Shown here: positions 161-4,975 of the stretch, in pieces
How the letters are laid out: each line of letters starts with the position of its first letter
Position numbering within the stretch: position 1 is the stretch's first letter
From: Escherichia phage PNJ1809-36
DNA length: 64,000 bases
Sequence record: MT944117.1
Direction: 5' to 3' (one strand)
Program-made: the position numbers and the translations under genes
The notes under the pieces: generated by a model
The model's database searches: none
The model's input: only the letters and a program-made list of their open reading frames with translations
What the model was told of the DNA's origin: nothing

Positions 161-307
161 TTAAACCTCCTCGTAGTAAGGCAAAGCTTTAATCAATTGT
201 TCTGAAGTACCATTCTCTATCCACGTAGCCCCGTTGTCAAGAGAAACATACCCTTTCTTATCGATAAATTTACGGAGACAGCCAGTGAACTTGTTTTTGT
301 AGATCAT
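161..307 (-). CDS. small hypothetical protein (48 aa)
   Basis: ATG at 307 overlaps stop of upstream gene (ATGA); stop abuts SD+ATG of next gene; MIYKNKFTGCLRKFIDKKGY... Confidence 0.4.
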   Translation of the reverse strand: MIYKNKFTGCLRKFIDKKGYVSLDNGATWIENGTSEQLIKALPYYEEV

Positions 308-747
308 TTCTTCTTTCCTTTCTTTAATTTGTTGTGACCTTTACCCTTATAAAGCTTGTGATTACGAGCAGACGGGTTATTTTGGTTCTCCAGTCGGCTA
401 ACAGGTGTATTCCAAAGGTTTCCTGCTACAAAAGATGCTGCCACAAGTTCTTCCAGGTATACAAAATCCAAAGCAGGTATCTTTGTTTCCCTCATCTCGC
501 GTTCTACATTAGACAACACGCCTTCTTCCTTACTATCTTCTTTTTCAATTACAGACCAACCCTCTTCCTGCCAAGCTTCCCCTCTGAACCAAGTTTCCAT
601 GTTATAACCTTGTTCGTCGAGAATAACACCATCTCGCATCTCAAACCATTCGCCACCACAAAAATGGCGGTGCTCAACACGTCTACCTTCCTTCATTGCT
701 TCTTTAGCTTCGAGCCAAGTCAGTTTGATGTTTTGGATGTTTTGCAT
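304..747 (-). CDS. DUF2829-like small protein (Tad2-like candidate) with Lys-rich C-terminal tail
   Basis: ORF 147 aa; SD AAGGAG upstream; N-terminal region WLEAKEAMKEGRRVEHRHF..GEWFEM...ETWF..EAWQEEGWSVIE resembles DUF2829 pattern (recalled, not searched). Confidence 0.45.
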   Translation of the reverse strand: MQNIQNIKLTWLEAKEAMKEGRRVEHRHFCGGEWFEMRDGVILDEQGYNMETWFRGEAWQEEGWSVIEKEDSKEEGVLSNVEREMRETKIPALDFVYLEELVAASFVAGNLWNTPVSRLENQNNPSARNHKLYKGKGHNKLKKGKKK

Positions 748-861
748 TTGTTTTCTCCTTTTGTTTGGTAGGAGTTGATCTTAACAAGATTAAAAAGTAT
801 GTCAATACTTGATCTGAAATTATTTTCAGGTATCATGTATGAACATTAACAAGAGAGGTAG

Positions 862-1155
862 ATGATGAACATTACTTTAGCAACTAAGAATATTTCTGAA
901 ACAATTAACGGTTTTGGTGTTATTGTAGCCTTGCACGGTAACAACGAGAAATGGTTGGCTTCTTTTGAAGAGGATCGTCAACACAATATCATTTTAGACG
1001 CTCCTATAAAAGTTATGCATATCCTTGGTGAAAACAAAGTGCTCACTTCCTCCCGTTCAAAGGAACAAATTACAAACGAATTAGTAAAACTGCTTGACAA
1101 TGTTCTTAACATGTTCGATAATGCACCTATCGACACAAAACGTGTCTTAATGTGA
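862..1155 (+). CDS. hypothetical protein (97 aa)
   Basis: ORF with SD AGAGAGG just upstream. Confidence 0.6.
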   Translation: MMNITLATKNISETINGFGVIVALHGNNEKWLASFEEDRQHNIILDAPIKVMHILGENKVLTSSRSKEQITNELVKLLDNVLNMFDNAPIDTKRVLM

Positions 1156-1167
1156 AAGGAGAATATA

Positions 1168-1659
1168 ATGGCTTACCCTGATTACATTGACGAACGTGCT
1201 ATGGGTTTCTTCCGTAACTTCTTGGTTGGTCGTTCTCACGGAGACAACGGTTCCAGTTATAAAACAAGCTGGGATAGTCAATGTGGCGCTAAGGCTACCA
1301 AAACTTTGAAAATGCCAGGTCGTCCGTTGTGCGCGTATTGTGGTAATGAAGCCTTAGCTCTTCAACCTGGTATTGAACATGGTGATTATACTATTAAAGG
1401 TTACACTTGTGTCTGCAAAGGTGCAATGGACGAGGCGGATTGGGTAAAAGAAAAAGCAGAGATGGAGGAACGCCATAAACGAGAAGTTTATGAAATGGAA
1501 AAACGTATGCCTGTTCCAGATTTGCAAGTTAAGAAAAATATTGTTGCGAAAATGATGGAAAAAGTCCAGAAAGCAGAGACGGAAGAAGACCTAAACCGTG
1601 CACTGGAAAACTTGCGTAATTTTAAAGAAGAAAAAGAGTTGCGCGAGATTATGTGGTAA
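1168..1659 (+). CDS. hypothetical protein, Cys-rich N-terminal region and charged helical C-terminus
   Basis: ORF 163 aa; SD AAAGGAG; CAYCGN...CVCKG cysteine pairs. Confidence 0.65.
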   Translation: MAYPDYIDERAMGFFRNFLVGRSHGDNGSSYKTSWDSQCGAKATKTLKMPGRPLCAYCGNEALALQPGIEHGDYTIKGYTCVCKGAMDEADWVKEKAEMEERHKREVYEMEKRMPVPDLQVKKNIVAKMMEKVQKAETEEDLNRALENLRNFKEEKELREIMW

Positions 1660-1696
1660 GGTATACTATTTCCATCAATTAAGAGAGGAGAACCAA

Positions 1697-1984
1697 ATGT
1701 ATTATTCACAAGATGAAGTAGCAAACATTAAACTGGCAGTGGGCGATCTTATTGTGTCACCTAACTACTATTGGGATAACACAGATTTGGTTGAAGTAGT
1801 AACCTATGTTGGAGTTGAAGGTATTGTGCTCTACACACTAGGTGGAGGTGTTGTTGGGGAAATGGAACGTTATACGACAACGAAGAAACTGGTAAGCTCT
1901 TATCACATGTTTTTACACCAAGGTTCGGAAGAGTATACAGCTTTCTTGTTGAAATTAGATGCAGATCGGGAGAAGGCACGATGA
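1697..1984 (+). CDS. hypothetical protein (95 aa)
   Basis: ATG 1697 after SD AGAGAGGAG; listed ORF 1598 start is an upstream alternative. Confidence 0.6.
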   Translation: MYYSQDEVANIKLAVGDLIVSPNYYWDNTDLVEVVTYVGVEGIVLYTLGGGVVGEMERYTTTKKLVSSYHMFLHQGSEEYTAFLLKLDADREKAR

Positions 1985-2337
1985 AAATTGTACACGATGA
2001 AATTCAAATAGAAGAAAGTGACCTGATGGATTTGGATGCAGCTTTGGGGAAGGTAATCTATGCAGGAATTAAAGCCTTCCGTGAGAAGGCAAACAATAGC
2101 ACGTTTGTCATGATCCCCACTAAACTGATGCGTGTTTTGTATCCAAATAGAAGTGCGCCGTATACAGATGAAGAAGAGGAGACAGGTAGAAGAGAGTGGT
2201 TAAATATTTTAGAAAAGATGGAGAATGCTTTTATTGATAGTGGTAATCCAGAAATCGTGTATGCTGAAGATCAAAGGAAGGCACGGTTAGAGGGCCGTCT
2301 TTTATTCGCTAGTTATTTTGATAATCTTTGGAGCTAA
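1981..2337 (+). CDS. hypothetical protein (118 aa)
   Basis: ORF; ATGA overlap with upstream stop. Confidence 0.6.
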   Translation: MKIVHDEIQIEESDLMDLDAALGKVIYAGIKAFREKANNSTFVMIPTKLMRVLYPNRSAPYTDEEEETGRREWLNILEKMENAFIDSGNPEIVYAEDQRKARLEGRLLFASYFDNLWS

Positions 2338-2339
2338 AT

Positions 2340-2516
2340 ATGTCTGAATTCTTCACAATGGCTTTCTTAGGGATCTATCTGATTATTAGTGCTGTTGGCT
2401 TAATCATGTCTCTAATAGAGGAAATGGGGATTAAGTGGAATTGTGCATTCGGTATAGCTCTTATGCTCACTCCAGTTTGGATTTACATTTGCAAATCGGT
2501 TGAACTAATTGGTTAA
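2340..2516 (+). CDS. small membrane protein (58 aa)
   Basis: internal ATG of listed ORF 2328; hydrophobic helix FLGIYLIISAVGLIMSLI. Confidence 0.5.
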   Translation: MSEFFTMAFLGIYLIISAVGLIMSLIEEMGIKWNCAFGIALMLTPVWIYICKSVELIG

Positions 2517-2526
2517 TGGAGGTAAT

Positions 2527-2865
2527 ATGTTTAGTAAAGAAATGAGAGAGGTAATCGCTACTCTGGTAGTTGATCATGGTGTTGAAGTTGAGCGTCACGT
2601 TTGGAAAGACGAGCCTCCTTTCTTTGATTTGGCATCACGGGCTAAAAGTCACATGTATCTCCTTGAAGATGATAAGGATTTTATTCTGCGTATGCGTTAT
2701 GATCGAGAGTTTAGAATTCCTCTTGACACAGATCCTGATGATGTAGTATTGTGGTTGGCAGAGCATTTCGCATTTAACGCTCTACATGGAAGAAGTTTTG
2801 GTAATGAACGTTGGGATACCATTTGTCGTAAACATAATATTGAACCAGAATACGGGAGTATGTAA
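2527..2865 (+). CDS. hypothetical protein (112 aa)
   Basis: ATG 2527 after SD GGAGG. Confidence 0.6.
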   Translation: MFSKEMREVIATLVVDHGVEVERHVWKDEPPFFDLASRAKSHMYLLEDDKDFILRMRYDREFRIPLDTDPDDVVLWLAEHFAFNALHGRSFGNERWDTICRKHNIEPEYGSM

Positions 2866-3116
2866 TGTTAAGTATCAAACCTAAAATGATTACTGAAGAT
2901 CAAAAAGATTACATTTATAAATGTGGTCGGGTGTGGAAAGAATACACTAAAGGTAATGAAGTTATTGTAGTTACGGAACATGCTATTTCTTTATCAGATC
3001 TTTTTGGTGATTATTTGCAAGTCATTAAAATTGGTATTGACAGAGGTTTGGTGCAGGTGTTAACATTATCCCAAGTTGAAGCAGAACACTTAGACAAAAT
3101 CATTGTCGAGTTCTAA
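2865..3116 (+). CDS. hypothetical protein (83 aa)
   Basis: ORF, start overlaps upstream stop. Confidence 0.55.
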   Translation: MLSIKPKMITEDQKDYIYKCGRVWKEYTKGNEVIVVTEHAISLSDLFGDYLQVIKIGIDRGLVQVLTLSQVEAEHLDKIIVEF

Positions 3117-3129
3117 GAGGAGAAAGAAT

Positions 3130-3294
3130 ATGATCTCTTTAGAATCAATAGCTTTTAAGAAAGGGTATACCGCAGGGTTCAAGTTTGGTATGTTTAATAA
3201 AGTAAATCCATATTGTCCAATGACACACAAAAAGGAATTCGAAGAATGGGAAGATGGATTTTCTAAAGGCTATCAGGCAAAAGGTTGGTTGTAA
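3130..3294 (+). CDS. hypothetical protein (54 aa)
   Basis: ATG 3130 after SD AAGAGGAG. Confidence 0.5.
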   Translation: MISLESIAFKKGYTAGFKFGMFNKVNPYCPMTHKKEFEEWEDGFSKGYQAKGWL

Positions 3295-3303
3295 GGAGAG
3301 AAT

Positions 3304-3468
3304 ATGATTTTAAACTTCATCATCAACTTGTGTTTGACATTGGGATTACTCTGTGCAATAGTATCCCCTCTGGTTGGTGAATATTGTTCTGAACTGGCGA
3401 TGTTTATAGTTCTTGGTGCGGCTATTGCTAATATGTTTATCGCTGCGATTTGTATGTTGTGGGAATAG
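3304..3468 (+). CDS. small membrane peptide (54 aa)
   Basis: SD AAGGAG + ATG 3304; two hydrophobic segments; below 60 aa so absent from ORF track. Confidence 0.45.
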   Translation: MILNFIINLCLTLGLLCAIVSPLVGEYCSELAMFIVLGAAIANMFIAAICMLWE

Positions 3469-3479
3469 GAGGGAAGTTT

Positions 3480-3836
3480 ATGAAAAAACTAATCTTAGCC
3501 ACATTGCTGGCTACCGTAAGCTTCACCACTTACGCTCAAAAATTTGTAGCAGTTAAAACGGATATTGGTAAAGATGTTGTGATCACAGGCAACAAATTTT
3601 ACTATACACCTGGGAATGGTGTTCTAGAAGAGTGCCAAGATGTTGAGGCATATACAGGAAAAGAAGATAACACGGAACGTCCTTTTTATTCGATTATAGC
3701 TACTTGCAAAAATGAAATAGTAGCTATTAAACAATACAAAGATGCCCCTGGAGGAGAGTACTTGTTAGTCAAGAATATTAAGAGTGAAAAAACTGCAAAG
3801 TTTACAGTAATTATTTTAAAAGGAGAAACGTTCTAA
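3480..3836 (+). CDS. secreted small protein with N-terminal signal peptide
   Basis: SD AGGAGGG + ATG 3480; MKKLILATLLATVSFTTYAQ signal-like N-terminus. Confidence 0.65.
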   Translation: MKKLILATLLATVSFTTYAQKFVAVKTDIGKDVVITGNKFYYTPGNGVLEECQDVEAYTGKEDNTERPFYSIIATCKNEIVAIKQYKDAPGGEYLLVKNIKSEKTAKFTVIILKGETF

Positions 3837-4975
3837 TGAAATACACTATTTTTGGAGATGTAGCTGTTGTAAATAAGGAATATGGCGTTGAAGCTAATAA
3901 ACTTCCTGCTGGAGTTTGGGTTGTCAACTGCGATCCGCACGGTAACTACTCTTTAGTGCGTGGCGAAAGTTTCTCTCTTCCGAACACTCTTTATGGGGAA
4001 ACTAAAGATCGCGCCGCACATGTTATTAAAACATTTGCTCGTCGTAGTAAAGAAGGTAAAAATACTGGGGTGTTACTGACAGGGACAAAAGGCAGTGGTA
4101 AGACGATGTTAGCTAAACTGATTAGCATGTCTCTAATGTCCACAGAAGGTTTAGGTATTCCAACCATTTTGGTTACACAGCCTTACACAGATGCTGGATT
4201 CTTAGAATTTATGAGTAAAATTACAGATCGTGCTGTTGTTTTATTTGACGAATTTGATAAAGTGTATGCTAAGAAAGAAGATCAGGAAGCACTGTTGACC
4301 TTGTTGGATGGAACAGGAAGTGGGAATAAACTTTACATCCTCACTAAAAATAGTGGTTATATCTCGGAATATTTTGTAAACCGTCCTAGTCGTATCTACT
4401 ACAGTTTCAATTACGATAAACTGTCTAGTGAAACTATGTTAGATTACTTGGATAAGAACTTGGTAAATAAAAAACACGTAGATAACTTCCAACGTTTATG
4501 GGATGTTAGCACAGAGTTGTCTTTCGATGTTATTCAAGGCATTGTAGAAGAATTGAATTTCTATCCAAAAATGACTTTTAAAGAATGTCTTGAAATGATG
4601 GGTATTTCTTTAGGCAATGATGCTAAATGGAATGTGGTTTCTATTGTAGCTAATGGCAAAACCTTGAAGGTGAATTGGATCAATAACTGGCACGACTTTA
4701 CCCCTACTAAGTTTTTGTCGGGTGCTTGTTCCTTGAACATCTATCTACAAAGCTTGAAAGATGATGAAGTGGAAGCAATGGAAACCAATAGTTATGTTAT
4801 CCTAGACGAAGATGGCGACCCACATATTGATCTATGTGCAACTGCTGATGGTCTAACTTGTGATCTGATTGAAGGTGGTAAGATCCTGGTGATGAGCACT
4901 ACACCAGGAAACACTCTGCGAGTGGTGCTGGAGCCTGTAACGCAGCGATCTACCACACTGGGTAGCGTATTCTGA
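3836..4975 (+). CDS. AAA+ family ATPase
   Basis: Walker A GTKGSGKT, Walker B VVLFDEFD, sensor ILTKN; 379 aa. Confidence 0.75.
   Translation: MKYTIFGDVAVVNKEYGVEANKLPAGVWVVNCDPHGNYSLVRGESFSLPNTLYGETKDRAAHVIKTFARRSKEGKNTGVLLTGTKGSGKTMLAKLISMSLMSTEGLGIPTILVTQPYTDAGFLEFMSKITDRAVVLFDEFDKVYAKKEDQEALLTLLDGTGSGNKLYILTKNSGYISEYFVNRPSRIYYSFNYDKLSSETMLDYLDKNLVNKKHVDNFQRLWDVSTELSFDVIQGIVEELNFYPKMTFKECLEMMGISLGNDAKWNVVSIVANGKTLKVNWINNWHDFTPTKFLSGACSLNIYLQSLKDDEVEAMETNSYVILDEDGDPHIDLCATADGLTCDLIEGGKILVMSTTPGNTLRVVLEPVTQRSTTLGSVF

Follow-up and report, generated by a model that had tools for sequence, protein, structure and literature searches.

A shortened Tad2-fold domain coupled to a conserved polybasic C-terminal peptide in a small, early-type gene of Escherichia phage PNJ1809-36

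The stretch of 64,000 nucleotides from Escherichia phage PNJ1809-36 analysed here (sequence record MT944117.1; hereafter the window) belongs to a phAPEC8-like myophage of the genus Phapecoctavirus, subfamily Stephanstirmvirinae, and carries at 304..747, on the minus strand, a gene of 147 codons plus stop that an earlier sequence-only reading had proposed and that the list of open reading frames (ORFs) bears out. The N-terminal domain of the 147-residue product is genuinely related to the Tad2 fold, but it is shortened, has diverged far and lies outside the boundary of the Pfam family. What is new is a large and unannotated Tad2-fold family, shortened and scoring below threshold, with a conserved polybasic C-terminal peptide, and it is plausible that the 304-747 product is an anti-defence protein missed by standard annotation tools. 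From the fold, the remote homology and the purifying selection acting on the tail, we tentatively suggest an early protein in which the minimal Tad2-like domain may bind a host nucleotide-type signal in an aromatic pocket and in which the tail may localize the protein.

Homology to canonical Tad2 is detectable at the level of profile-profile comparison. With a profile built on the N-terminal 70 residues, an exhaustive HMMER search (inclusion at E<=1e-3) recovered 369 cluster representatives at that threshold (50%-identity clusters), mostly standalone proteins of 60-70 residues. PF11195 (Tad2-like) is touched below threshold by 38 of 94 relatives, with a best E-value of 5.8e-4. When ten relatives were scanned individually against Pfam, all ten matched PF11195 with 14-21 bits, short of the curated cutoff of 25, several along the full model, and PF11195 was the top Pfam match in nine of them; one matching relative, P0026, is ~50% identical to the domain of the 304-747 protein. 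Among the six best matches of the 94-sequence profile to the PDB are SptTad2, ModTad2 and another Tad2 chain, at sub-significant E-values of 0.17-1.2, and PHROG 2709 is common to SPO1 Tad2 (E 2.3e-9) and the 304-747 protein (E 1.9e-4). Aligned by hhalign with nine canonical DUF2829/Tad2 sequences, which were taken from phage records and PDB alignments, the family profile gave Prob 94.1% and E 1.3e-7 over 37 columns, and extended and global profile alignments cover 58 columns at Prob 92-95%, with a middle part that is unreliable.

An AlphaFold2 model of residues 8-68 (544..726, minus strand), built from the 94-sequence alignment with no templates, has a mean predicted local distance difference test score (pLDDT) of 87.6 and a predicted template modelling score (pTM) of 0.71. 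The modelled elements are helix alpha1 (11-19), strands at 23-26, 35-38 and 41-44, a short helix (58-61) and a strand at 64-67, i.e. the predicted domain packs alpha1 against an antiparallel beta-sheet and continues with a short helix and the last strand, in the same order as in the Tad2/DUF2829 proteins SPO1 Gp34.65, ModTad2 and SptTad2. In a Foldseek search of BFVD, proteins annotated as DUF2829 or Tad2-like rank directly after the family's own members. The residues that are near-invariant in the family are A14, G21, H26, F29, E33, G40, E45, G47, Y48, W53, R55, G63 and W64. With Tad2/DUF2829 the domain shares the motif '(F/t).EA..a(L/M)K.GkkV.(R/H)' and a terminal '(D/G)W.I', conserved aromatics at the ligand-stacking positions W25 and W73, and the general character of small, acidic, phage-encoded, early or accessory proteins. 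The description of the N-terminus as DUF2829/Tad2-like thus holds for the fold and for distant homology, whereas formal membership does not, there being no PF11195 match; the domain, for which a span of ~90 residues had been proposed, actually comprises ~60 (residues 8-68).

For the comparison of pockets, the ligand residues of SPO1 Tad2 were taken from its published description (10.1101/2023.05.01.538930) and its numbering was rebuilt from the PDB chain, which reproduces the published W25, N26, I63, T65, D67, H71, W73, S76, T78 and D79. The profile alignment places F29 at W25 (F in 93% of the family), W53 at W73 (W in 79%) and W64 at W85; a Tad2-like pocket may thus retain its aromatic core.

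The same searches produced a few other observations on the domain and its canonical counterparts. The very large repeat proteins P0028 (2489 residues, 16 stretches), P0052, P0081 and P0156 align many times with the middle of the N-domain profile through an 'E.GY..W'-like unit; P0156 resembles Listeria-Bacteroides (Flg_new) repeats, and these matches probably reflect unrelated repeat similarity. A weak match in the PDB (E 0.73) to residues 661-702 of 9xqs_A, phiKZ gp087 in a baseplate complex, resembles the central motif of the family. Canonical DUF2829 genes form an adjacent tandem pair in Bacillus phage BMBtp3 (L002 401-643, 643-854+), and in the T4-like Vibrio phage CZ01 (L006 96-703) such a gene directly follows that of the AsiA anti-sigma factor.

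Behind the domain lies a 79-residue C-terminal extension with a polybasic tail, which sets the protein apart from Tad2/DUF2829. A Lys-rich tail of ~50 residues had been described here; the Lys-rich end exists, but it is confined to the last 19 residues, and the rest of the extension consists of three other parts. The acidic linker (residues 69-94; 466..543, minus strand; net charge -3) is variable in length, with indels and substitutions in the family alignment, and a helix is predicted at 76-87 at low confidence (pLDDT ~47-50). A hydrophobic helix, 'LDF..LE.LVAAS' (residues 95-111; 415..465, minus strand), is modelled over 95-107 with L98, E99, L101, A103, A104 and S105 invariant, and a related form of it, D[FY]s.LE, recurs in the divergent tail-bearing relatives FBKp34, P0027, P0029, P0031, P0051 and P0172. 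The segment 'W.TPVSR..NQN.PSAR' (residues 112-128; 364..414, minus strand) is conserved and probably disordered (pLDDT <50), with W112, P115, V116, S117, R118, P125, S126 and R128 invariant. The polybasic tail itself, NHKLYKGKGHNKLKKGKKK (residues 129-147; 307..363, minus strand), has a net charge of +9 and an isoelectric point of 10.6 and carries at the C-terminus the core motif K-G-[KR]-G-H-N-[KR]-L-[KQ]-K-[GR]-K-K-K. Residues 69-147 match neither Sequestin (PF21825) nor Acb4 (PF13876) nor any other Pfam family.

The tail, which had been regarded as an oddity, is indeed distinctive, but the alignment of 22 homologs and the comparison of codons identify it as the best-conserved part of the protein. 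No change in it occurs among the 22 homologs, even between those whose N-domains share only ~60% identity. Each pairwise comparison of tail codons yields 3-6 synonymous and 0-2 replacement changes, and the tail is under purifying selection. The synonymous changes within the tail rule out DNA identity as the source of its conservation, and constraint from the overlapping start codon and Shine-Dalgarno sequence of the downstream ORF is ruled out by FBKp34 and Mt1B1_P17, which keep the tail in the absence of the overlap. Klebsiella phage FBKp34 keeps YKGKGHNKLQKRKKK (core YKGKGHNKL.K.KKK) despite unrelated residues 69-128, and, again behind unrelated linkers, the motif ends four divergent metagenomic proteins (P0029, P0031, P0042 and P0051); two fragments, P0171 and P0172, close with it as well. 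A word-indexed search with the 66-residue C-terminus, a profile search with the tail and a scan of IMG/VR with back-translated KGKGHNKL found the motif elsewhere only in fragments of the same family and in one chance internal match, so that mimicry of a host protein by the tail is without support. By analogy with the SEC-C motif of SecA, discussed next, we infer that the tail is a peptide that would address or tether the protein to a partner of polyanionic or acidic character.

Other lineages of the family carry appendages of their own at this position. SEC-C motifs (PF02810, the C-terminal metal-binding peptide of SecA), defined here by the zinc-binding cysteines CxCxSGx8C[HC] together with a PF02810 match, stand behind the short Tad2-like domain in P0106 (residues 91-106, 22.3 bits) and P0113 (residues 119-135, 33.9 bits; Pfam cutoff 20.4), Cys-rich knuckles end P0082, P0099, P0120 and P0132, and the basic tails of P0063 and P0166 share a loose 'YN..G[HN]NK[RL]..KKK' theme. 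It appears that the short Tad2-like domain has repeatedly been coupled to short C-terminal peptides of a targeting type. The tail of the 304-747 protein resembles the SEC-C motif in its position and in being a short, basic, G/K-rich peptide; one MAFFT alignment adds a loose KG..[HR]N.L ... KK resemblance that has no statistical support. The SEC-C/metal-binding domain of SecA binds SecB and ribosomes (10.1101/613315; PMC6620043). The tail is not itself a SEC-C motif, residues 69-147 being free of cysteines and giving no PF02810 match. Fusions of Tad2 to a second module are common (10.1101/2025.07.12.664507), and the joining of a Tad2-type domain and another module in one polypeptide parallels the fusions Tad2-Acb4 and Tad2-Sequestin (PF21825); unlike these, the 304-747 protein is predicted to end in a disordered basic peptide and not in a second folded sponge.

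This pattern of conservation also suits an alternative in which the tail is the effector and the Tad2-like domain only an oligomerizing or solubilizing scaffold. The protein would then bind or coat a polyanion or an acidic protein of the host, such as nucleoid DNA, rRNA or the ribosome, SecB-like acidic surfaces or anionic lipids, and so disturb a host process during takeover. Several features are consistent with it: the tail is conserved more strongly than any other segment, evolves under purifying selection and persists behind unrelated linkers; in other lineages the same domain bears SEC-C motifs, Cys-rich knuckles or different basic tails; and the charge of the protein is sharply divided (about -11 for residues 1-111 versus +9 for the tail). 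However, most family members (~60-70 residues) consist of the standalone domain without a tail, which argues that the domain performs a conserved function by itself, with polar and aromatic invariants of its own, and a target cannot be inferred for a motif that was found in no other protein. We consider this alternative rather unlikely and continue to favor, tentatively, a signal-binding domain that the tail localizes.

The actual family of the 304-747 protein is that of PHROG 22208, a full-length match (E 1.9e-101) of unknown function, and PHROG 3474, a 64-residue family of unknown function that matches residues 7-68 (E 1e-29). The helix and polybasic tail set the protein apart within it, being restricted to Stephanstirmvirinae-type members and a few metagenomic lineages. 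By tblastn the N-domain is present in 469 phage records (Escherichia, Klebsiella, Salmonella, Citrobacter, Erwinia and others), ~70 of which span >=80% of the query, a coverage that excludes the tail because the low-complexity filter ends the query before it. Short standalone homologs of PHROG 3474/22208 occur in T5-like, T4-like, FelixO1-like, rV5/PVP-SE1-like and Stephanstirmvirinae phages. Three of these homologs, each with the family signature, were placed within clusters of tiny early or accessory ORFs. In the T5-like phage chee130_1 (L014 3489-3686) a 65-residue homolog lies inside the left terminal repeat, near A2; this repeat is the pre-early, first-step-transfer region of T5-like phages, which is injected and expressed first. 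The homolog of a T4-like Jiaodavirus lies within an early cluster and that of a FelixO1-like phage between the genes for DNA polymerase and ligase. These locations fit genes for host takeover or anti-defence without being specific for them. Literature searches found no experimental data for the short Tad2-like domain family.

Tad2 proteins are homotetrameric sponges (10.1101/2023.05.01.538930; 10.1101/2023.11.15.567273), and the ligands of the family include 3'cADPR, 2'cADPR, His-ADPR, cyclic dinucleotides, cUMP/cCMP and N7-cADPR (10.1101/2023.05.01.538930; 10.1101/2023.11.15.567273; PMC12393519). By analogy, we suggest the following scenario for the 304-747 gene: (i) the gene would be transcribed early by the host RNA polymerase to give a two-module accessory protein, (ii) the first module (residues 8-68), a minimal member of the Tad2/DUF2829 fold, would self-associate as Tad2 does and bind a nucleotide-derived signalling molecule of the host in a pocket lined by aromatic residues (F29 and W53), (iii) capture of this signal would blunt a signalling-based abortive-infection defence, and (iv) the second module (69-147), comprising the acidic linker, the conserved helix and the invariant polybasic peptide, would by means of this peptide tether the domain to a polyanionic component, i.e. 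nucleic acid, the ribosome or an acidic membrane, and so play a role equal to that of the SEC-C motif in the sister lineages. The ligand is probably not canonical 3'cADPR, because the polar residues of the pocket differ from those of SPO1 Tad2 and because the Tad2 family binds many signals. A more specific form of this scenario, in which PHROG 3474/22208 is a distinct clade of sponges, distributed across the main lytic phages of Enterobacteria, for a signal other than the known Tad2 ligands, such as an alarmone or a new immune nucleotide, and in which the tail, as a functional equivalent of the SEC-C motif in sister lineages, localizes the Stephanstirmvirinae members to the ribosome, nucleoid or membrane, strikes us as distinctly improbable. 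It would amount to spatially targeted sequestration of a signal, which to our knowledge has not been described for any phage sponge.

Several observations weigh against a localized, Tad2-like sponge, and the first concern the homology itself. Pfam returns no family for the protein at E<=1 and, for its 22 close homologs, no PF11195 at E<=10 and only two chance hits; the protein stays below the PF11195 gathering threshold of 25 bits, the NCBIfam search gave nothing, and phmmer and a profile of the 22 close homologs found nothing relevant among all PDB sequences. The unreliable middle of the Tad2 profile alignment adds to this. A profile search and structural comparison with Tad2, which the sequence-only reading had named as its check, thus gave a divided answer: the direct Pfam and PDB sequence searches were empty, whereas the profile of the relatives and the predicted fold match Tad2. 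A first full-length AlphaFold2 model was poor (pLDDT 64) and is superseded by the domain model; with it, Foldseek placed Tad2 on top of the PDB matches at a non-significant E-value of 0.26, which served as a lead only. From the failure of the direct searches with hidden Markov models, the ease with which small folds recur and the non-significance of all Foldseek matches of that first model it could be argued that the similarity to Tad2 is chance or convergence between small alpha+beta folds, and that the protein is an ordinary phage ORFan unrelated to sponges. The profile-profile homology and the domain model stand on the other side, and we regard this explanation as very improbable indeed.

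The second group of difficulties concerns the pocket. In the profile alignment the polar ligand contacts are replaced (N26 by C30, which is T/S in the family, S76 by R55, T78 by E57 and D79 by A58), the motifs GWNGK, KTAD and SQTD are absent and the KTAD region of SPO1 Tad2 has no reliable counterpart, so that the aromatics alone survive from the signature motifs and ligand residues of SPO1 Tad2. Tad2 proteins have between beta2 and beta3 an insert that bears helix alpha2 and builds the V-shaped dimer; this insert of 25-40 residues is missing here, where beta2 (35-38) passes through a tight RDG turn into beta3 (41-44), and 57 residues align out of the 86-104 of Tad2 proteins. HgmTad2/AcrIIA7 (PDB 8kbi, 9kzr), which binds gcADPR and cyclic dinucleotides (10.1101/2023.11.15.567273), is likewise larger (104 residues, with the insert) and 19% identical. 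As alpha2 is missing, the oligomer, and hence the pocket between subunits, may not form in the manner of Tad2. To judge from the alignment, then, the polar chemistry is different from that of Tad2 and the oligomer possibly so.

These differences bear most directly on the proposal, made in the sequence-only reading, of a Tad2-type sponge for Thoeris signals. In its classical form the protein would be a homotetrameric sponge for the gcADPR signals of Thoeris (3'cADPR/2'cADPR), for which the match of the predicted fold to Tad2 structures, the conserved equivalents of W25 and W73 and the early position of the gene can be cited. However, conservation does not extend to the polar ligand contacts or the signature motifs, the alpha2 dimerization insert is missing and the score is below the Pfam cutoff; moreover, the specificity of bona fide Tad2 proteins already varies so widely that retention of the founder's ligand is unlikely in a family this divergent. 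A sponge for Thoeris gcADPR signals is weakly supported by the sequence and specific anti-Thoeris activity is unsupported, and we judge the classical function to be decidedly unlikely.

Third, the domain has invariants of its own. H26, E33, E45 and R55, as well as G47 and Y48, set the family apart from Tad2/DUF2829, and the first four, which have no counterpart in Tad2, could serve another function. Alternatively, therefore, the N-domain may bind a protein or a non-immune small molecule, for example to act as an AcrIIA7-style inhibitor or to modulate (p)ppGpp or another signal of metabolism or stress, or may be a tiny metal-dependent enzyme (H26, E33, E45), with the Tad2 fold reflecting ancestry only. 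DUF2829 proteins have also been reported as AcrIIA7, and Phapecoctaviruses already target (p)ppGpp through Atd1, a MazG-like (p)ppGpp pyrophosphatase with anti-TIR activity that AntiDefenseFinder reports in Phapecoctavirus and Justusliebigvirus. The persisting aromatic positions would find a use more readily in the signal-binding domain that we tentatively favor, and a non-sponge function of the domain seems to us unlikely. Finally, a free sponge has no obvious need of a tether, and the genomic context is non-specific because all neighbours of the gene are of unknown function.

If the short domain is a working sponge, annotation at Pfam thresholds is at present blind to a family that occurs in at least 469 sequenced phages (of E. 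coli, Klebsiella, Salmonella and relatives), many of them candidates for therapy. The family would then extend the repertoire of counter-defences directed at signalling, probably by adding specificity for a new ligand. Given the invariant polybasic tail, and the SEC-C motifs of the sister lineages, one may ask whether some phage sponges are tethered to a cell structure rather than freely diffusing; an answer would bear on where in the cell immune signals arise or are sensed. Should the domain prove to be something other than a sponge, the Tad2 fold would have its first example of a function that departs from sequestration.

The signals around the gene are of the early type. A Shine-Dalgarno sequence, AAGGAG (755..760, minus strand), can be read 7 nt 5' of the ATG at 747, and a promoter scan identified a sigma70-type promoter at 778..805 (minus strand; TTGACA, 16 nt, TAAGAT, with an extended-10 TG; 10/12 matches). 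Over 3 kb the DNA is 99.5% identical to that of Escherichia phage vB_EcoM_ASO2A, the record of which annotates a promoter at the equivalent site; the counterparts of the gene in ASO2A (ASO2A_246) and in phAPEC8 are both labelled hypothetical. From this divergent sigma70-like promoter region the gene heads a leftward run of small unknown ORFs. The next of these (161..307, minus strand; 48 residues) corresponds to ASO2A_245 and is conserved in contig L011. Its ATG overlaps the stop codon of the 304-747 gene (ATGA), and the tail codons AAA GGA AAG (304-330, minus strand) double as its Shine-Dalgarno sequence, so that it appears to be translationally coupled and part of the same operon.

In the window, the neighbours of the gene have DUF-type Pfam labels or none, and the 64-kb search found neither a second copy of the gene nor a canonical DUF2829 gene. 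Identity of the 304-747 gene with Atd1 was considered and rejected, Atd1 being a different gene that encodes the MazG-like enzyme. The divergent rightward operon (862-4975, plus strand) comprises small ORFs, none of which is a known anti-defence gene and whose labels in the syntenic contig L011 are all of the DUF type (DUF7325, Phage_tudor); it includes a Cys-rich ORF of 163 residues (1168-1659) and ends with the gene for a 379-residue AAA ATPase (3836-4975). An antisense ORF of 145 residues (334-771, plus strand) spans the whole 304-747 gene and is also open in the related contig L012 (4445-4882); it has no homology and no signals of its own and is most likely a shadow ORF, a by-product of the Lys/Glu-rich codon composition. 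At the other end of the gene, codons 2-7 (727-744, minus strand) consist of a 9-bp tandem duplication, CAAAACATC x2, which gives the N-terminal 'QNIQNI'; this duplication is common only to P0001 and P0007, and other homologs begin with MQNIKL or MQN(M/L)TW.
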